From: a phage
Sequence record: PX994957.1
Reading direction: 5' to 3' (one strand)
Length of the DNA: 64,000 bases
Positions within the stretch are counted from its first letter, which is position 1. Every line of letters starts with the position of its first letter. The position numbers and the translations under genes are program-made. The notes beneath the pieces were generated by a model that saw nothing but the letters and a program-made list of their open reading frames with translations, was not told the origin of the DNA and ran no database searches. Positions 3,005 through 23,502 of this stretch are shown piece by piece.

Positions 3005-3202
3005 TCATTTTACACCATTCCAAATTGTTTCAACTACTGATTTTAAACCATTTTGATAAATATCCATTCCGACTACTGCCATCAAATAGATTCCAACTAC
3101 AACTGAACCTAAGGCGAAAATCAGCATAAAAATAAATAAAGTCGGAAAAATATTATCGAAAAACCATTCAATAAATGTAAAAGCACCGCGTTTACGCTTC
3201 AT
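3005..3202 (-). CDS. 65-aa membrane protein
   Basis: ATG 3202 with SD GAGGAAAATA; hydrophobic core FIFMLIFALGSVVVGIYLMAVVG; track start is TTG read-through. Confidence 0.55.
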   Translation of the reverse strand: MKRKRGAFTFIEWFFDNIFPTLFIFMLIFALGSVVVGIYLMAVVGMDIYQNGLKSVVETIWNGVK

Positions 3203-5913: not shown

Positions 5914-8091
5914 TTAGGCCGCAAGGGCCTTCATAGTTTTAGCGATTTGGGAAACTTCATCATCACTTAAAGAGTTGCGATATCCGATGAAGTCGGAAAC
6001 AATACGGAATTTCTTGGTAAACTCAGCAACCATTTTATCACTGTTTTTTGAAGCATTATTTGATAATACATCAAAAAGATTAGTTACTGTCCAGATATCA
6101 TGACCGATGGTATCTTTTCCACCATTAAAATATACACCGCGCAATGAACTAACTATATTAGCGAGTCGTGTATATTCTTCAGAAACTTCATCTGTACTGA
6201 AGTACTTCATCATAAAATCTAGCTCAGGATACTTGATAATTTTATCAATATATCGTTGAGCTGAACTTGAATAACCTACATACTTATCATAATCTACATC
6301 ATCAAAAGCATCTACATATAAATCACGCAAAGCTTCAAAAATACATTGGCACTGACCGAGTTCTTTTACCTTTTTCTGTAAAAGCGGACGAATAACATAA
6401 AATTCATTAATGCCAATAAGATTAGCCATACGAATCAAAATATTCATAGATGGATGACAAAGTGATGTAGTACCATCCATAGAGAAAATATCAGAACGAT
6501 GCATATACGCTACATAACCAGTAATTTCATCTGCTTCTGACGTAAGTGTAAATAGTTCCTCTTTTTCCCAGCGCCCATCTTTAATTTCAAATTTAAATGC
6601 TGTAGCAGCTTTAGGACGAGGAGCTTTACTTTTAACTACCTTTGGAATATAACTTTTAACCAAAGCTTCAATTTCTGACAAATAGTGAATGTTAACTTCA
6701 TCACTTTCAAACATCGCCATAATATCAGGGAGTAAATCAATCTGCGATTCTACTTCCGGATTAATAAACAGAAGACGCTCATTGTGATGAATATTCAAAG
6801 TGTTATTAAATTCACTATCATCTAACGCGTGTGCTAATCCACGGACAATATTAACACGATTTTTAATATTATCAATAACGATATTAATTTTTGTTGTATT
6901 AATACCAAACAGACGATAACTTGATGCAACGGCTGAAGTTTCATGACTTTGCTTAATGCGTTTCAGTCGAGGGTCAAGATTTACTTCATACACCACGCCT
7001 GCATTACATAACTTACTGTCAGGTTCAAACATGCTCTGCATCTTCTTATATGACAGATTTTTAGTCGTGAATTTGACTGAATTACTAATCATATAATCTC
7101 GAGCAGAATAGCCCATTTTCATTAACTCGCGATACGTATGGCGAGGAGATGTAGATTCTTTAAATCGTTTTACATCTTCATTAAATGCTTTCTCACTAAG
7201 CTCTTTAACTCGTTCAATAATATTTTTACGAGTACGATCATCCAATGAAAGAGCTTCACGTGATGGAGCAATATCAAGTGAACCCATTGGAAACTTAATG
7301 TAATTCACTTCATTGCGAATGCTTAGCCAGTTACGGTCTCTAATAACACCATCGATAGGATAAACAATACCGCCATAGATAGCATATAATCCACCACGAT
7401 CAGGCCAGTATCTTTCTGGATTTACACCGTAATAATCATCAAAATCCGGAAAATAATCAATTTCACGGTCAAGACCATTAATAATAGCCAAATCTTTGAA
7501 CGGTCGCATGATATAAGAAACTTCATAAGCAAAGTTTCTAAAGTCTTTTTCTTCAACTGGAACTACGATTTCAATACCAGTTTTATCATCTGGACCCATT
7601 TCTTTTACGAATGTAGGTTTAATCTGTGGGCCATCACCATCCATGTAAGCTACATAACCACGAATTTCACCTTTATGATACGAAGTAATACTAAACGTAT
7701 CAGTATAACTAAACGGAGATTTAGAACCTAAACCAAATCCGCCAATGAAATCGTTAGATTCAGCCTTAGATGAACTGAAGTATGAATTATACAAACCAGG
7801 AGAATTATCATCACCCTGAATATCAAAATCACTCATACCCGGACCAAAATCTCGGCAAACAAATCGTGGATCTAAACGTCCAGGAACTTGAATGATAAAT
7901 TTTTCAGGATTTCCATTGAGAGCATGGGCATCAATCATGTTGGTAATCAATTCACGAACAACTGCGCGAATCTTATTTGTATACAAATCAGATGATAAGA
8001 TTTTAAATACTTTAGGAGATGCTGTGATGCTAAATGCTTTTGATTTAGAACCATTACCAAGAATTGTTTCTTTTTCAGTGGTGATAATCAT
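5914..8091 (-). CDS. rIIA: RIIA (GHKL-ATPase-like membrane-associated protein)
   Basis: 725 aa, equal to T4 rIIA; ATG 8091 with SD GAGGAAATTA. Confidence 0.93.
5916..5930 (-). other. rIIA-rIIB intercistronic hairpin
   Basis: AGGCC gcaag GGCCT palindrome between rIIA stop and rIIB SD. Confidence 0.45.
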
Positions 8092-8101
8092 AATTTCCTC
8101 A

Positions 8102-8305
8102 TTAATTCATATTACGCTTAATAACTTCAGCAACTTCTAGTAGTTCGTCTTTAGTTGCGGTGTCGGATTGAATTTTATCTCTAATATCTTTAAAGCGGTT
8201 TTTAAATTCTTCGGCTTCTCCCATATCGAAAAAGCGTTGAATGATTCTATATTCTCGATGAACTGCTTTATCAAAAAGTTCTAAATTTACTTTATATGAT
8301 TTCAT
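8102..8305 (-). CDS. rIIA.1: RIIA.1-like small protein
   Basis: 67 aa; ATG 8305 with SD GAGGATA; between gene 39 and rIIA. Confidence 0.65.
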
Positions 8306-15185: not shown

Positions 15186-16505
15186 TCACACATAAAATAC
15201 GTCATAACGACCACGGGTAACACCAACATAAAGAAGCTGCTGAGCTAGTTCAGCATCTGCATAATGAATACAAGGCGTATAAATGAAAGCACGGTCTACA
15301 GACATACCCTGAGCTTTATGGAATGTTGATGCAGGAAGCGCTTTCACTTTACTAAACTGTGATTTAGCATCCCAAAAATCACTCCACGGAGCTTTTCCGC
15401 CTTTATTCCAATTTTTATAAGTTTCTGCCGTTTTACCTAAAAACAGGTTAAACTTATATAGCTCTTCATCAGATGAAATTATTTTAATCTTTTCACGATA
15501 ATATTCATCATCGCCGTAAGTTTCTACTGTTAAATCCCAATGACGAATTAAGTATTCTCCAGGAACACCACGAGCTTTAACAAACGTTGATGTATACTCT
15601 GCTTCTATAATACGAACTAATTGTCCATTATTAAAAATAATTTCTGATACAGGCTTTCCATCAATTTTATATGTTTTAATTAATGGTTCCTGCATTACAA
15701 TAATTTCACCGACAATAAAATCTTTATCAGTTTCAAAAATCTTTTTACGAATAATGCTATTTAACTTATCAACAGATTTATTCGTAAATGCCATTACGCG
15801 ATTTTCAAACAAATCATCTAAAGATTTGACGATTGAAAAATAATTTACCATAAAATCGCGTAAAGCGGTATCACCAGTAAATCCACGTACTCCATGCCCG
15901 TCAACAACTTTATCATAAATCCACTTACCGTTACGAACATCAGTAGCTACATCAATAATAGGAGCATTACTGCGTTTAACTTCAGTAAGTTCACATTGAT
16001 AAAAATCTTTGTGTGTAAAGAATGGACTGATATAAGCAGTATTTTCTCCTGGATCAACAGGTCTAATTTGCTTATTATCACCTATTCCAATTATTGTGCA
16101 CCACGGCGGAATAGTTGAAAGCAGAATTTTAAATAGCTTTCTATCATACATTGACACTTCGTCGCAGATTAATACCCTGCATTTAGCTAAATCTGGTACT
16201 TCCTTCTGTTCAAAAAGAACGTTTTCTTCATACGTAACTGGGTTAATTTTAAGAATACTGTGAATAGTACTCGCTTCTTTCCCCGACAGTTTTGAAAGAA
16301 TCTTTTTAGCTGCATGAGTAGGAGCTGCCAAAATGATACCAGTTTCACCCGTAGATATTAAAGCTTCAATGATGAACTTAGTAAGAGTAGTCTTACCAGT
16401 ACCAGCAGGTCCATTAATAGTTACATGATGTTTCTTTTCTTTAATAGCCCTCATAACGATGTTAAAGGCATTTTTCTGGCCTTCTGTCAAATCATCAAAT
16501 GTCAT
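15186..16505 (-). CDS. dda: Dda SF1 DNA helicase
   Basis: 439 aa, equal to T4 Dda; Walker A GPAGTGKTT; helicase motifs throughout. Confidence 0.93.
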   Translation of the reverse strand: MTFDDLTEGQKNAFNIVMRAIKEKKHHVTINGPAGTGKTTLTKFIIEALISTGETGIILAAPTHAAKKILSKLSGKEASTIHSILKINPVTYEENVLFEQKEVPDLAKCRVLICDEVSMYDRKLFKILLSTIPPWCTIIGIGDNKQIRPVDPGENTAYISPFFTHKDFYQCELTEVKRSNAPIIDVATDVRNGKWIYDKVVDGHGVRGFTGDTALRDFMVNYFSIVKSLDDLFENRVMAFTNKSVDKLNSIIRKKIFETDKDFIVGEIIVMQEPLIKTYKIDGKPVSEIIFNNGQLVRIIEAEYTSTFVKARGVPGEYLIRHWDLTVETYGDDEYYREKIKIISSDEELYKFNLFLGKTAETYKNWNKGGKAPWSDFWDAKSQFSKVKALPASTFHKAQGMSVDRAFIYTPCIHYADAELAQQLLYVGVTRGRYDVFYV

Positions 16506-16813
16506 CGGAAAGTCCCTGCAATTGGAATACTAACAATACGCCCAGTATCTAGAATTCGTTGATATAATCTTTGTGTATCTACATCAGGCTTAACATGTTT
16601 AACTTCTATTTTATTAAACCAAAACTTGCGTGGAGTCTCAACTAGTCTTGGAATTCCCATACCTAAAGCTAGTTTATATTGGTCTTTGAGAGTAGTAAAA
16701 ACTCTATCAGCAATCTCTCTTTCAAAAAATACAGCAGGACGATGTTCATCAAGTGGAACTGGCGCCGTAAATCCGTCTTTGTCTCGGTAAACTATCGCAT
16801 ATACATAAACCAT
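16502..16813 (-). CDS. hypothetical protein (dda.1-type)
   Basis: 103 aa; stop overlaps dda start. Confidence 0.55.
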   Translation of the reverse strand: MVYVYAIVYRDKDGFTAPVPLDEHRPAVFFEREIADRVFTTLKDQYKLALGMGIPRLVETPRKFWFNKIEVKHVKPDVDTQRLYQRILDTGRIVSIPIAGTFR

Positions 16814-16814
16814 A

Positions 16815-17561
16815 TTATCCTCGGATAAGTTTAAAAATTGAACAATTTAGTGGGTATCCTCTTTTCAGTTTAAGTTTATCAATAAAAGACAAGTTTTGAT
16901 ACCGCTCTACACCTTGAATAATTTTATCACACATATCATATTGCATTTCTGCTTCTGACAACTTTTTCACAATTTTCCAATCCGAGCCTTTAAGAAGAAC
17001 GTTCAGTTTAACAACTTCAGCGCCTTCTGCTATGCGAGAACCATCAATACGAGCTTTAAGTGCTATAATCCTTAGCTTAATGTCAGAGGTCTGTTTTGAT
17101 TTAGAAAGCTGAGAAATGTGTTCAATTCGATTTTCACGCTTTTTCTGTATAGCTTTAATTTGATTATAAGTCTTTTTGATTTTAGCCCATTTCTTTTCAT
17201 CTAAATTTAGTTTATGAACTTTTTTCGCAGATGAACGACCAATTCGCAAAGCAAATAAATCCCGTTTTTCAATCAACTCTTCTAAAGTATAATCAGAACG
17301 AAATGTATTATACTTTTTCTTTACTGCAATAACGTTCCCTTTAATGTATCCAATGTTATTATCAAAACGTTCTAATGATAATTTCTCTCCTTCAATACGA
17401 TTATCAAAAGGTTCTCCTGAATAGGCACAAACTTTTTGATCTAAAATGTTCTTAATGTAATTGAAGTCTAAGTTAAAATCTTTAGAACGTCTTTTTGCAG
17501 ATGCCTGAGTATGCTCTAAACGACGTTTAATTTTACGAATTTGGTTATTAGACAGTTTCAT
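16815..17561 (-). CDS. srd: Srd-like protein (sigma-mimic host-takeover factor)
   Basis: 248 aa basic protein between dda.1 and modA, the T4 srd position; assignment by position and size only. Confidence 0.5.
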   Translation of the reverse strand: MKLSNNQIRKIKRRLEHTQASAKRRSKDFNLDFNYIKNILDQKVCAYSGEPFDNRIEGEKLSLERFDNNIGYIKGNVIAVKKKYNTFRSDYTLEELIEKRDLFALRIGRSSAKKVHKLNLDEKKWAKIKKTYNQIKAIQKKRENRIEHISQLSKSKQTSDIKLRIIALKARIDGSRIAEGAEVVKLNVLLKGSDWKIVKKLSEAEMQYDMCDKIIQGVERYQNLSFIDKLKLKRGYPLNCSIFKLIRG

Positions 17562-17591
17562 ATTTTTCTCACGGACGGTTAACTTACTTAT

Positions 17592-17621
17592 ACTATATCA
17601 TTTTTACTTCAGCTTGTAAAC
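17592..17621 (-). promoter_or_regulatory. T-even early promoter upstream of srd
   Basis: GTTTAC (17616-17621), 18-nt spacer, TATAGT (17592-17597). Confidence 0.5.
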
Positions 17622-17677
17622 AACTTTATGTAAAATGCTTTAAAACTTTCGTGGTATAATGAATCTAAGTCCTTCCA

Positions 17678-18280
17678 TTATAGATTAAATCCTTCAAAAT
17701 CAAGAGTATAGATAGTGTATGTTGAATACTTTTTATACTCATATCTATCTGCAATTCTAAATACACTTCCAGCTGGTATCATTACTTCTTGTTCATCTGA
17801 AACTAATTCCATATTACGATAACGATGGCTATCCGGAAACTTAAAGTTTGGATTGTATTCTTTACAGCGTAGAGCTTTTATAGCATACTCCTGGAAATTG
17901 AATACCATAGGAGCTTTGAATTCAAAAATAACCTGTGTGTTATACTCTAAACCGGAAGCAAAATGTAGAGCTATATTTTTATCATATGAAGCTGATACTA
18001 CTTTATCAAATGTAATAATATCAATTCCTTGATTTAACACTTGCTTAGTCTCGACTGGAACACCTCTCCAAAGAGGTTTATCGTTTGGTTCCAAACGAGA
18101 TTTGATTATTTCATTTAACCAAGTATGGTCATCTGGTTTGTTGGTAATACAATGAATTAAAAGTTCAATTTCAGATAAATTAAACCCTTCAGAAAGTAAT
18201 TCTTCACGAATAGAAGCACGCACCGATGCATCCATTGATTTTATTTTAAAATCTTTTAGTTGCATTACTGAGTATTTCAT
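17678..18280 (-). CDS. modA: ModA ADP-ribosyltransferase
   Basis: 200 aa, equal to T4 ModA; ART-like R / S-x-S / E-x-E pattern (LWRGV, SAS, EQEVMIP). Confidence 0.75.
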   Translation of the reverse strand: MKYSVMQLKDFKIKSMDASVRASIREELLSEGFNLSEIELLIHCITNKPDDHTWLNEIIKSRLEPNDKPLWRGVPVETKQVLNQGIDIITFDKVVSASYDKNIALHFASGLEYNTQVIFEFKAPMVFNFQEYAIKALRCKEYNPNFKFPDSHRYRNMELVSDEQEVMIPAGSVFRIADRYEYKKYSTYTIYTLDFEGFNL

Positions 18281-18900
18281 TCAACTACCTCAATATCATA
18301 AACTTTAAATGTTCCAAATGAATCGTGTAATTTTTCTTTTGAAATAGAAGTTATTTTATACTTTCCAATTGGAATCATCCATTCTTGTTCACGCACAATC
18401 ATCATTAAGTTATCAGTTCTTTCTGAATCTAACCCGTCAGTATCTTCATACGTGTACTTAAACTCAGTATTAGGAGAAGAAAGTATAATATCGCTGATAT
18501 GGTCAGAATAATTAAAAGCTTTATCAGTTTTTAAGCGAAAAATTATTTCAGTGAAATATTCAGCATAAGAAAAAGAACACGCTGTATGCAAACTAGTAGT
18601 AAATGAATCTACCCTGTTCGTTGAAAACACTTCTCCAACTTGTAAATCTTTAATGAGTTCTTTTGTCGATTTTGATATACCACGATATAATTGATAAGGC
18701 GATTTAATTAAATGCTTTTTAATGATTTTATTCAACTGTCTGTGAAGAGCTTCATTCTTTTTGGCTTCCATACATTGCCAAAGAACAGACTGCTCAAAGT
18801 CAGTAAATTTTTCACAGACCTTTTTATACATATCATATTGAAAATCAACGCTTTCAGCTTTTATAGATAACTGTTCAACATCTGCAAGATTAATAATCAT
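18277..18900 (-). CDS. modB: ModB ADP-ribosyltransferase
   Basis: 207 aa, equal to T4 ModB; paralog of modA (LYRGIS, EQEWMIP). Confidence 0.75.
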   Translation of the reverse strand: MIINLADVEQLSIKAESVDFQYDMYKKVCEKFTDFEQSVLWQCMEAKKNEALHRQLNKIIKKHLIKSPYQLYRGISKSTKELIKDLQVGEVFSTNRVDSFTTSLHTACSFSYAEYFTEIIFRLKTDKAFNYSDHISDIILSSPNTEFKYTYEDTDGLDSERTDNLMMIVREQEWMIPIGKYKITSISKEKLHDSFGTFKVYDIEVVE

Positions 18901-18926
18901 GATAGCCTCCGTATACTTCAGAAGCT

Positions 18927-18956
18927 ATCATATCATCGTTAGAAAGGAAAGTAAAC
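18927..18956 (-). promoter_or_regulatory. T-even early promoter upstream of modB
   Basis: GTTTAC (18951-18956), 18-nt spacer, TATGAT (18927-18932). Confidence 0.5.
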
Positions 18957-18967
18957 AACTTTTTGAA

Positions 18968-21377: not shown

Positions 21378-21518
21378 TTACAATTTAGCGGCTTTCCAGA
21401 GTTGTTCAATAATCTCTTGGTCTATTTCTTTAGTTATTTCATTACGTAATAAAGCAGTAAGGGCTTTCGCCCTTTTCTTATTCAACTTTTTGAGTTGACG
21501 TTTATTTAAACAAGCCAT
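21378..21518 (-). CDS. possible 46-aa basic protein; may be non-coding
   Basis: ATG overlaps gp56 stop (TAATG) but no SD; contains GAAA-loop hairpin (21460-21475) and MotA-box-like TGCTTTA. Confidence 0.3.
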   Translation of the reverse strand: MACLNKRQLKKLNKKRAKALTALLRNEITKEIDQEIIEQLWKAAKL

Positions 21519-22036
21519 TAATAACCTCGGTCTTGACGTGCGAAATTTTCAGCATTTTTCAGGTAATAAAGTTTAAAGATTTCTTCTGCTGTAAGACCAA
21601 GACCTTGGAACATGTTCAGAACGAAATGGAGAATATCAATCATTTCAAACTTAATTTCCAGTTGGTCTTGTGGAGACAAATCAGTAATCAGAGTTTCACG
21701 GCGTTCACCATGCTGCGACTTCCAAGGCTTCCATACAGCAGATGCATCTTTTTCACCATTGCTCATACCACCAAGAGAAGTCAGAAGTTCACGGAATTCA
21801 TCATCAATATAATCTTTCTGATTACGCAACCAATCAACAACTTCACCGGCAGTAGCCAAGTCATCAGGATGACGATTATATTCAGGTTTATCTTTAGCTA
21901 AACGAATTTGCAGAGATTTCTGCATGTCAAGCATTACCTGCAGCGGGTCTTTTTCATCACCGAGAATATCCCAATATTCATTTTGAGCTTTATCAGCGCC
22001 TTCGATCAGTTGACTACATTCGTTGAAATGTGGCAT
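21518..22036 (-). CDS. 56: gp56 dCTPase/dUTPase (MazG-like)
   Basis: 172 aa (T4 gp56 171 aa); ATG 22036 with SD AAAGGAAAAAT. Confidence 0.88.
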   Translation of the reverse strand: MPHFNECSQLIEGADKAQNEYWDILGDEKDPLQVMLDMQKSLQIRLAKDKPEYNRHPDDLATAGEVVDWLRNQKDYIDDEFRELLTSLGGMSNGEKDASAVWKPWKSQHGERRETLITDLSPQDQLEIKFEMIDILHFVLNMFQGLGLTAEEIFKLYYLKNAENFARQDRGY

Positions 22037-22072
22037 GTTATTTTTCCTTTCAATTCATGGGTTAGTAGATTA

Positions 22073-22097
22073 ATTATACAATAAATATATAAAGCAA
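22073..22097 (-). promoter_or_regulatory. MotA-dependent middle promoter for gene 56
   Basis: MotA box TTGCTTTA (22090-22097), 11-nt spacer, TATAAT (22073-22078). Confidence 0.5.
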
Positions 22098-22109
22098 TAA
22101 GGAGGACAT

Positions 22110-22310
22110 ATGGTACAAAAATTAATGGCACTTGTTAATGCCATAAAAGGTAATAAAAAACGTATAGCTTTTACTATTTCTGCTATGGTAGGAATTTTAC
22201 TCTGGAACTTTATTCTATCACCTGTTGCAATTGCGCATGGTATTAATATTCCAGTAGTTACTCTTGATACATTTGTAGATTTAGCATTTGCTTTAGTTGG
22301 GTTAATTTAA
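22110..22310 (+). CDS. 66-aa hydrophobic protein on the opposite strand between 56 and 61
   Basis: strong SD AAGGAGG (22099-22105) then ATG 22110; MVQKLMALVNAIKGNKKRIAFTISAMVGILLWNFILSPVAIAHG; stop interleaved with gp61 stop. Confidence 0.45.
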   Translation: MVQKLMALVNAIKGNKKRIAFTISAMVGILLWNFILSPVAIAHGINIPVVTLDTFVDLAFALVGLI

Positions 22311-23335
22311 ATCTTAGCATATTTAGATAGCCGCATTTTAGCCATCAACCCCTGGGCAATATTATTTTTCATATATTCCATAATTTGTTCAGGGGTTGCA
22401 CCTTCCTTTCTAATCATATCATTAACATCTTTTGATTTCCAGGGAGATTTATCCCAAAACATAACCCTTTCTCCTGCATCAACTAATTTAGTCATTCGCT
22501 TAATAGTGTCAGGATGACGAGGTTCATTATCTAAGACCCACACACGCCTATCTTTAAATGGAACAACTTCTAGGTCTAATTGACCACCCGTAATAGCTAT
22601 ACCATTTTCAATAAAAAGTGAATCTATAGGTCCTTCTAGAACATATACATCGCCATCTTTAACTCGTTCAACACCGTAAATTTTTGTTGCCTCAGGATAA
22701 GCTTTAATGGTGATATATTTTTGAGGAGCATCTTTCTTTAATGCACGTCCTTGAAAAGACTCAGCTTTTCCATTAGCATTATAAATTGGAATAACAAGAC
22801 GAGGCTCAGAAATTTCCTTTTTGTATGTTCCCGGTGCTATGCTATTAACTAATTTAGGCCATTCGGTTGTAAACCAAAGATATTTCCATTTATCCTTTGG
22901 AATACAACGAGCTTTTACATATTTTATAATTGGATGGTCTTCCGCCAGTTTATCTAATCTAACACACGACGGAAGAGATTTAATTATTTTCTTCTCAGGT
23001 TGTTTAGGAAGTTCTTTAGGTTTTTCTACTGGACGACTTTTACCTTTTTCTTTTCTTATTTCAAAGATATACTCACGATATAAATCGGGTTCAAACTCCT
23101 TTAAATATATTCCGATTGGTGCATGATAGTTACAGTTATAACAATGAATATTTCCTTCATTATTATCACCATAATACCATCCACGAGCTTTATTCTGATC
23201 GGTTTTTGAATCTCCACAAACAGGGCATCTAAACCGCAATTTAAAAGTTGAACTATTATTTACTTGTGTGAATTTAGGTAAATGAGCTAATGCACGATAC
23301 GCAAACTCATTATCAATCCAAGGTATTGATGACAT
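22307..23335 (-). CDS. 61: gp61 DNA primase
   Basis: 342 aa, equal to T4 gp61; N-terminal zinc ribbon CPVCGD...CYNC; TOPRIM-like VLEGPIDSL / VLDNEPRHPD. Confidence 0.9.
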   Translation of the reverse strand: MSSIPWIDNEFAYRALAHLPKFTQVNNSSTFKLRFRCPVCGDSKTDQNKARGWYYGDNNEGNIHCYNCNYHAPIGIYLKEFEPDLYREYIFEIRKEKGKSRPVEKPKELPKQPEKKIIKSLPSCVRLDKLAEDHPIIKYVKARCIPKDKWKYLWFTTEWPKLVNSIAPGTYKKEISEPRLVIPIYNANGKAESFQGRALKKDAPQKYITIKAYPEATKIYGVERVKDGDVYVLEGPIDSLFIENGIAITGGQLDLEVVPFKDRRVWVLDNEPRHPDTIKRMTKLVDAGERVMFWDKSPWKSKDVNDMIRKEGATPEQIMEYMKNNIAQGLMAKMRLSKYAKI

Positions 23336-23337
23336 TT

Positions 23338-23502
23338 TTACTCTTCTTTTTCTTTAGATTCCTCTTTCTTCTTTTTAGGAATCTGTTCAGGACCTTTATT
23401 TACTACAGCGCCCGACGTTGTTCCAGTAGAGATATTTTCAGGATTACCACCTGAATCTCCAGCGACCATATCTTCTTTGATAAATTCTTTATATGTTTTC
23501 AT
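23338..23502 (-). CDS. 54-aa Lys/Glu-rich protein
   Basis: ATG 23502 inside repeat copy A (TAATATG junction); MKTYKEFIKEDMVAGDSGGNPEN; absent from ORF track. Confidence 0.45.
   Translation of the reverse strand: MKTYKEFIKEDMVAGDSGGNPENISTGTTSGAVVNKGPEQIPKKKKEESKEKEE

Follow-up and report, generated by a model that had tools for sequence, protein, structure and literature searches.

dam.1, a conserved and probably late membrane-protein gene beside a variable dam slot in the 56-61 interval of T4-like phages

Middle promoters of bacteriophage T4 carry a MotA box with the consensus (a/t)(a/t)(a/t)TGCTT(t/c)A. The box is found near position -30, separated by 11-13 bp from a sigma-70 -10 element (TAnnnT), and there is no -35 element. 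In the T4 reference genome (NC_000866), gene 56 (16270-16785), dam (16846-17625) and gene 61 (17935-18963) follow one another, all on the minus strand. Phage T2 also carries dam. The late promoters of T4 consist of an 8-bp box, TATAAATA (PMC2988020). Among 50 listed sites, 32 are perfect and nine have A at position -13, which is the commonest natural variant (PMC2988020). The -13 position is likewise poorly conserved in other T4-like phages (PMC1524935). Early and middle transcripts of T4 have one polarity and late transcripts may have either (PMC2988020).

The DNA analysed here, referred to as the window, is a stretch of 64,000 nucleotides from the early-gene region of a T4-like phage (Tequatrovirus). 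Its best matches in the phage collection are about 96-98% identical over 25 kb. Shigella phage Sf23 is colinear with the full window, at about 97% identity, and is 100% identical over 551 bp around the feature of interest. An earlier reading, made from the sequence only, gave the order 56-dam-61 for T4, correctly according to NC_000866. It proposed that the equivalent interval in the window, of about 270 bp, contains no dam-sized open reading frame (ORF). Instead, it noted a short ORF on the opposite strand, for which we use the T6 gene name dam.1. The features of the interval, and the genes either side, are as follows.

21518-22036, minus strand: gene 56, encoding a dCTPase/dUTPase of 172 amino acids; taken from the ORF list, with a gp56 homolog annotated at the same coordinates in Sf23; left boundary of the interval
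22078..22073, minus strand: -10 hexamer TATAAT of the predicted gene 56 middle promoter; on the left, homology with T4 ends with this block
22079-22098: 20-bp segment CAATAAATATATAAAGCAAT, which holds the putative late-promoter box and the MotA box and occupies the place of the T4 dam cassette
22080-22087, plus strand: putative late-promoter box AATAAATA, at -30 from the dam.1 ATG; the A(-13) variant of TATAAATA
22097..22090, minus strand: MotA box TTGCTTTA, 11 nt upstream of TATAAT, of the predicted gene 56 middle promoter
22099-22105, plus strand: Shine-Dalgarno sequence AAGGAGG, 4 nt ahead of the dam.1 ATG
22110-22310, plus strand: dam.1 ORF, 66 amino acids, ATG start; a member of phrog_2024
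22115..22144, minus strand: terminator-like hairpin ATGGCATTAACAAGTGCCAT and T-rich tail, lying beyond the 3' end of gene 61, within the 5' part of dam.1
22307-23335, minus strand: gene 61, encoding a DNA primase of 342 amino acids; convergent with dam.1

Genes 56 and 61 are separated by 270 bp and dam.1 is the single substantial ORF between them, with nothing above its 66 amino acids. The coordinates of this ORF, its strong Shine-Dalgarno sequence and its hydrophobic product (GRAVY +1.25) all agree with the sequence-only reading. The stop codons of dam.1 and gene 61 overlap by 4 nt, inside ATTTAAAT. Listed mechanically, the window has 99 plus-strand ORFs of at least 50 amino acids. Only dam.1 has a Shine-Dalgarno match of 6 nt or more and, similarly, only dam.1 has NATAAATA within 60 nt upstream. 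We conclude that the ORF is more than a chance occurrence. In the corresponding 64 kb of Sf23, every annotated CDS is on the minus strand except the dam.1 ortholog, gp153. The annotation of this colinear region is in line with the suggestion that dam.1 would be the only plus-strand gene in the window.

The absence of dam from the interval is borne out by both the ORF list and homology searches. Using tblastn, we found no homolog of T4 Dam across all 64 kb of the window (best E = 2.4). The complete genome of Sf23, the closest relative sequenced, was equally negative (best E = 1.4). As a positive control, T4 Dam searched against T4 gave E = 5e-164. Similarly, no methyltransferase appears in the Sf23 genome annotation. 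Hence, a dam gene elsewhere, raised in the sequence-only reading as the finding that would count against it, did not appear in either search. Conversely, the view of dam.1 as an ORF present instead of dam fails, because T4 carries the two genes side by side. The 310-bp gap between T4 dam and gene 61 is unannotated and holds the same ORF, on the plus strand, at 17738-17938 of NC_000866 (97% amino acid identity). This ORF is absent from the annotation of T4 records NC_000866, AF158101 and the original K03113; other T4 and T-even records do annotate it.

Pairwise BLAST alignment locates the difference between the two phages. The window and T4 are homologous up to 22078, the edge of the -10 hexamer TATAAT, and homology resumes at 22099, with the Shine-Dalgarno sequence. 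Between these junctions the window has 20 bp and T4 has 899 bp (NC_000866 16826-17724), consisting of dam with flanks of 20 bp and 99 bp. The arrangement in phage T6 is exactly that of the window, and the T6 ORF is named dam.1; the 20-bp segment is identical in T6 and G50. In the comparison of T2, T6 and T4 proposed in the sequence-only reading, the layout without dam recurs in T6, but replacement does not hold, since T4 and T2-type genomes have dam together with the ORF.

We surveyed the phage collection for alternative forms of the interval. DNA of the T4 dam type occurs in 184 records. The dam.1 ORF, at 90% identity or more, occurs in about 503 records (Tequatrovirus). In 323 records, the match to the window interval is either contiguous or interrupted by an insertion of about 650 bp. 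This insertion, present in 59 records, is a NUMOD3-type homing endonuclease. The dam-less interval is therefore the T6-type state, found in roughly two thirds of sequenced Tequatrovirus genomes. Phages of the Lutter type have dam together with an additional 186-amino-acid ORF in the slot, and more distant T4-like phages have other, unrelated, ORFs between gene 56 and dam.1. Given that dam, the homing endonuclease and unrelated ORFs all occur at this junction, the site is an insertion hotspot, at which dam is one of several alternative cargoes. The lack of dam is then a presence/absence polymorphism, with the slot empty in the window phage and T6 and filled in T4 and T2. The dam.1/61 gene pair is unchanged across these forms, dam.1 being the constant neighbour of gene 61. 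As a well-defined site, the hotspot is suited to work on the movement of dam and other accessory genes among T-even phages.

Upstream of gene 56, the minus strand reads ATTGCTTTA, 11 nt and then TATAAT (22097..22073), ending 36 nt upstream of the gene 56 ATG. The layout fits the MotA-box middle promoter predicted in the sequence-only reading, and the equivalent site in phage fPS-90 is annotated as a "predicted middle promoter". We agree that this is probably how gene 56 is expressed at middle times. The plus-strand late box falls inside the spacer of this minus-strand promoter. Hence the 20-bp core could act as a compact divergent promoter pair with temporal separation: MotA-dependent middle transcription of gene 56 on one side, and late transcription of dam.1 on the other. 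If so, the locus would offer a clean natural case of two temporal promoter classes set back to back, with both restored by each alternative cassette.

The candidate late promoter was described in the sequence-only reading as lying about 30 nt upstream of the ORF, and as similar, though not identical, to the consensus. This is an accurate account of AATAAATA, which starts at -30 from the ATG and agrees with the consensus at seven of eight positions. The same box is present in T6, G50 and also Mosigvirus. In T4 and Lutter the box is GATAAATA and in Gaprivervirus it is CATAAATA; three distant metagenomic T4-like phages have one or other of these two forms. The canonical TATAAATA lies upstream of the ORF in Klebsiella phage Marfa. 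A rule whereby the -13 base is never T does not hold, because the Marfa box is perfect. Across T4-like phages, NATAAATA is found 16-27 nt upstream of the start codon, with the Shine-Dalgarno sequence following, in nine of ten lineages. The tenth, an S16-like Salmonella phage, has ATTAAATA instead. The Shine-Dalgarno sequence is conserved in all T4-like homologs. The late box was absent from all four of the non-T4 homolog contexts inspected.

Bases around the late box are not conserved between lineages and, in T4, the box lies at the end of the dam cassette distal to gene 56. Since the T4 box thus sits in a wholly different sequence context, the box tracks the ORF rather than the gene 56 promoter. 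For phage Lutter, the annotation places an 8-bp promoter on the plus strand at the corresponding position. We also counted ATAAATA in the window. There are seven copies on the two strands, compared with 40.7 +/- 5.7 expected from dinucleotide-preserving shuffles, a six-fold depletion. The three minus-strand copies are upstream of soc, a known late gene, and in the gene 49 and rI regions. Such a deficit would be expected if stray late promoters were selected against. Taken as sequence, AATAAATA is a credible late promoter. A late transcript of the plus strand, dependent on gp55, gp33 and gp45, would, we infer, start near 22093 and have a leader of about 17 nt. Logically, as early and middle transcription in T4 is all on the other strand, dam.1 should be expressible only late. 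There is no Rfam match, and the predicted leader of this transcript shows no unusual folding (z = -0.7).

To understand the coding potential of dam.1, we turned to its homologs. The product matches phrog_2024, a family of unknown function, with E = 1.4e-31 (residues 2-66 aligned to positions 1-65 of the 65-position profile). All of the 16 diverse family members taken from our alignment match the same profile. An exhaustive search with the family profile, covering 1.84 billion representative proteins, returned just 17 clusters, all of 33-70 amino acids, which share the core W-N-(F/Y/L)-x3-P-x-A...G-x2-L-P...(E/D). The sequence in the window is identical to that of Sf23 gp153, annotated as a "predicted membrane protein". 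Orthologs are called "hypothetical protein" in hundreds of Tequatrovirus records, RB55_p033 being another example. Outside this genus, the orthologs (62-66 amino acids) have about 55% identity in Mosigvirus and about 49% in Gaprivervirus, where there is a second, tandem, paralog. They are also found in T4-like phages of Klebsiella, Salmonella and Citrobacter, and in metagenomic T4-like phages at 25-30% identity. Both the length of the ORF (57-70 amino acids) and its motifs persist to about 25% identity. We found no paralog of dam.1 in either the window or Sf23.

Position and orientation are conserved along with sequence. Wherever the ORF was found in a T4-like phage, the neighbouring genes are on the other strand and the ORF abuts or overlaps the 3' end of the primase gene. 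This arrangement occurs in T4, T6, Sf23, G50, Mosigvirus, Gaprivervirus, Marfa, the S16-like phage and metagenomic T4-like phages. Beyond the T4-like phages, homologs are carried by E. coli prophages and by phage contigs of other types, and these lack a neighbouring primase gene. Pairwise dN/dS ratios (Nei-Gojobori) are 0.10-0.15 within Tequatrovirus. Between genera they fall within 0.10-0.35, and for Tequatrovirus, Mosigvirus and Gaprivervirus they are 0.14-0.34, with dS above 1, so that synonymous sites are saturated. Within Gaprivervirus they are 0.35-0.55, from few substitutions. Literature searches found no published transcript, ribosome-profiling or proteomic evidence for dam.1. By these comparative measures, dam.1 is a genuine protein-coding gene, evolving under purifying selection and held in a conserved position and orientation.

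An AlphaFold2 model of the dam.1 protein (mean pLDDT 79) is a simple helix-loop-helix, with helices at residues 2-11, 15-42 and 52-63. The N-terminus is basic (K4, K13 and K16-R18), and acidic residues are limited to D53 and D57. The long hydrophobic helix, at about 15-42, contains an invariant W32-N33 and P38. It is followed by a loop, G44...P48, and the short hydrophobic C-terminal helix (52-63). The model suggests an inner-membrane protein with its N-terminus inside, either single-pass or a hairpin. In such a topology, the basic N-terminus would be cytoplasmic, one transmembrane helix would carry the W-N...P motif, and a short periplasmic loop would lead to the hydrophobic C-terminal helix. 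The window protein has no Pfam match at E values up to 10. Across the family, searches of Pfam, NCBIfam and PADLOC gave nothing consistent; only weak matches to holin families recur. Foldseek, run against BFVD, retrieved family members alone, one of them automatically named "Holin". The neighbours of non-T4 homologs are endonuclease VII, tail proteins, a RelA/SpoT-domain protein and a prophage end, which form no coherent module.

Could the ORF, after all, have replaced dam in this phage, with dam perhaps relocated elsewhere in its genome? Although the interval has the ORF and no dam, this is almost certainly wrong: dam and the ORF adjoin in T4, T2-type and Lutter-type genomes, and a Dam homolog is found neither in the window nor in the complete Sf23 genome. 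It is very improbable, too, that the ORF is untranslated and that its conservation reflects cis-acting elements, either a gene 61 terminator or, for gene 56 or dam, a promoter and leader. The terminator-like minus-strand hairpin inside the 5' end of the ORF (22144..22125), which is annotated in fPS-90, would fit such a model, as would the omission of the ORF from curated T4 annotations and the loss of its ATG in T6. However, the hairpin is confined to Tequatrovirus and absent in Mosigvirus and Gaprivervirus. A terminator does not, therefore, explain conservation of the ORF and we rejected it as the reason. Furthermore, dN/dS is far below 1, synonymous sites are saturated between genera, Gaprivervirus has two tandem paralogs, and homologs occur in unrelated genomic contexts. 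Since some homologs lack the gene 61 context, conservation cannot result from overlapping 56/61 cis-elements alone. There is a small chance that the RNA matters more than the protein. Here, the late promoter would read into the convergent primase gene, antisense RNA would lower gene 61 expression late in infection, and the peptide would have a lesser role. The ORF is indeed convergent with gene 61 in each T4-like lineage examined, abutting or overlapping its 3' end, and from 22310 to 23500 the plus strand has no terminator-like site. Read-through is nevertheless deduced only from the missing simple terminator motif. In addition, purifying selection acts on the amino acid sequence, the strong Shine-Dalgarno sequence is conserved and some homologs have no primase gene nearby, and together these points show that the protein is itself under selection.

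Another reading gives the protein a role in lysis. Specifically, dam.1 might encode a holin-like or holin-modulating protein, related in truncated form to the final transmembrane segment and C-terminus of three-transmembrane holins. It would act late, at the inner membrane, with T4 holin T, antiholin RI and RIII. We regard this as doubtful. The gene is small, its product is membrane-embedded and its expression is probably late. Distant family members give weak matches, consistent in position, to the C-terminal third of PF11351 (GTA_holin_3TM), with E = 0.03-0.1, over positions 66-117 of the 123-position profile. Two distant members only match phrog_3427, annotated "holin", with E = 5e-4 and 2e-3 (positions 75-127 of 141), and there are matches to phrog_11161, also "holin", with E = 0.012-0.065. 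However, PF11351 scores are 13.6-15.3 bits, against a curated cut-off of 24.8, and all of the holin matches are sub-threshold. They also span hydrophobic segments, where similarity can easily be spurious, and the window protein itself matches nothing. A UniRef entry names a 91%-identical protein "Holin", but this is an unreviewed automatic label. The charged, hydrophilic C-terminal tail typical of holins is missing. An E. coli prophage homolog is 1.5 kb from a T4-type lysozyme gene, yet the latter is on the other strand with four ORFs between. In T4-like phages the gene does not adjoin e, t, rI, rIII or the spanins, and e, t, rI, rIII, pseT.2 and pseT.3 of Sf23 are distant. Elsewhere, non-T4 neighbours are endonuclease VII and tail proteins rather than a lysis cassette.

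Our preferred reading is that dam.1 is a genuine gp55-dependent late gene, encoding a small inner-membrane protein, and that the absence of dam beside it is a polymorphism. We put the probability of this at about 0.8; late timing, membrane topology and function are the parts that we infer. Within this reading, a late, probably dispensable, envelope protein is the most likely explanation, with a lysis-timing or holin-like role the leading, but weak, guess as to function. Antisense control of primase ranks second and an untranslated ORF is unlikely. Only tentatively would we regard the product of dam.1 as a late and dispensable factor of the envelope, for lysis timing or membrane integrity. It would be bolder, and probably mistaken, to regard dam.1 as a functionally important late gene, overlooked in the T4 reference for around 40 years, that combines an unassigned envelope process with possible antisense silencing of primase. 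The envelope process could then be lysis timing, lysis inhibition signalling or membrane maintenance.

What is the significance of the locus? The gene is already catalogued, as T6 dam.1, as Sf23 gp153 and in phrog_2024, and the dam-less state is common. Hence, novelty is low. Even so, the T4 reference (NC_000866/AF158101) lacks a gene that is under purifying selection and is conserved, late-promoter box included, in the T4-like phages examined, which is a modest gap in annotation. Because the gene is missing from the reference annotation, genome-wide T4 screens that depend on annotation will miss dam.1. The residual interest is in a conserved, probably late, membrane gene absent from the T4 reference annotation; in other respects the biology is ordinary.

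With the small phage holins of PF11351, phrog_3427 and phrog_11161, dam.1 shares small size, a membrane helix and probable late expression. Unlike the three-transmembrane holins, it has one long transmembrane helix rather than three, and in T4-like genomes it is not adjacent to an endolysin or spanin gene. The closest described gene is dam.1 of T6 (MH550421, AXN58073.1), which matches that of the window in position, strand, Shine-Dalgarno sequence and 20-bp promoter segment. Its product is identical except for the first codon, which in T6 is ATT, and the annotated product begins at Met6 and has 61 amino acids. With ATG changed to ATT, translation in T6 must use either a rare codon or Met6. This suggests that the first residues, or high expression, are dispensable.

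The T4 dam cassette occupies the same chromosomal slot, and alignment fixes both junctions to single-base precision. At its two ends, the T4 insert brings in its own MotA and late boxes, which differ from those supplied by the 20 bp of the window. Finally, dam.1 can be compared with T4 late genes located inside early regions. An example is soc, in the same window, where TATAAATA is 39 nt before the ATG. As for T4 late genes, the sequence just after the dam.1 box is A/T-rich, the predicted leader is short and the Shine-Dalgarno sequence is strong. Unlike consensus T4 late boxes, those of most dam.1 orthologs have a non-consensus base at -13 (A, G or C) and, as a result, the promoter may be weak. 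Furthermore, unlike T4 late genes in early regions, dam.1 opposes every one of its neighbours and converges on an early/middle gene, the primase gene 61.

In the window, a 20-bp segment (22079-22098) stands in place of the 899-bp cassette that carries the DNA adenine methyltransferase gene dam in T4 (L001 3327-4225). Comparison of the two versions shows that one edge of the indel splits the gene-56 promoter precisely between its MotA box and its -10 box. The other edge is just upstream of the Shine-Dalgarno sequence (SD) of dam.1, the 66-aa plus-strand membrane ORF between genes 56 and 61. Each version supplies its own MotA-like box and its own NATAAATA box. Hence, both flanking genes keep promoters in either state.

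In T6 (MH550421, L038 2232-2234) the start codon of dam.1 is ATT, rather than ATG, and the GenBank protein therefore begins at Met6 (61 aa). The promoter box and SD are unaltered.

We examined the late-promoter core, ATAAATA, across the whole window on both strands. Only 7 copies were observed, compared with 40.7 +/- 5.7 expected from dinucleotide-preserving shuffles, a roughly six-fold deficit. Their positions are as follows.

Occurrences of the late-promoter core in the window
3056, 3132, 22081, 24060; plus strand; ATAAATA
21368, 49164, 62502; minus strand; ATAAATA

On the minus strand, ATAAATA precedes soc and also occurs in the regions of gene 49 and rI. Of the copies on the plus strand, those at 3056, 3132, and 24060 are not followed by any plausible ORF. 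This scarcity of ATAAATA suggests that stray late promoters are selected against in the early region.

GATC, with 72 occurrences in the whole window against ~199 expected from base composition alone, is strongly avoided in this phage without its own Dam. In Escherichia phage Lutter (MT682714), a 186-aa ORF (L023 2280-2840, minus strand) directly precedes dam in transcriptional order. This ORF has a weak, sub-threshold Pfam match (E = 0.0045; 16.8 bits, cut-off 23) to the DpnII restriction endonuclease family, PF04556. DpnII cuts GATC. The ORF may be what is left of a GATC restriction-modification pair that gave rise to the T-even dam cassette.

Relatives of dam.1 occur elsewhere. Gaprivervirus has two tandem paralogs (in phage VR26, L005 2495-2692 and 2701-2901) that share ~22% identity with each other. 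In Marfa, the one Klebsiella T4-like phage examined, the second type alone occupies the dam.1 site. Hence, the family was duplicated and then differentially retained. A 70-aa homolog (8001-8213 of E. coli chromosomal contigs L025-L028) is the last gene of a prophage whose insertion site adjoins yegD/alkA. The surrounding AT-rich block, also containing a T4-type lysozyme gene and a SegE-like GIY-YIG fragment, looks like T4-like cargo within a siphovirus-type prophage.

A 46-aa ORF is located between soc and gene 56 (21378-21518, minus strand). It marks a second presence/absence site flanking gene 56. In T4 this place is taken by segF (formerly gene 69), which encodes a homing endonuclease, and in T6 by two other small ORFs.
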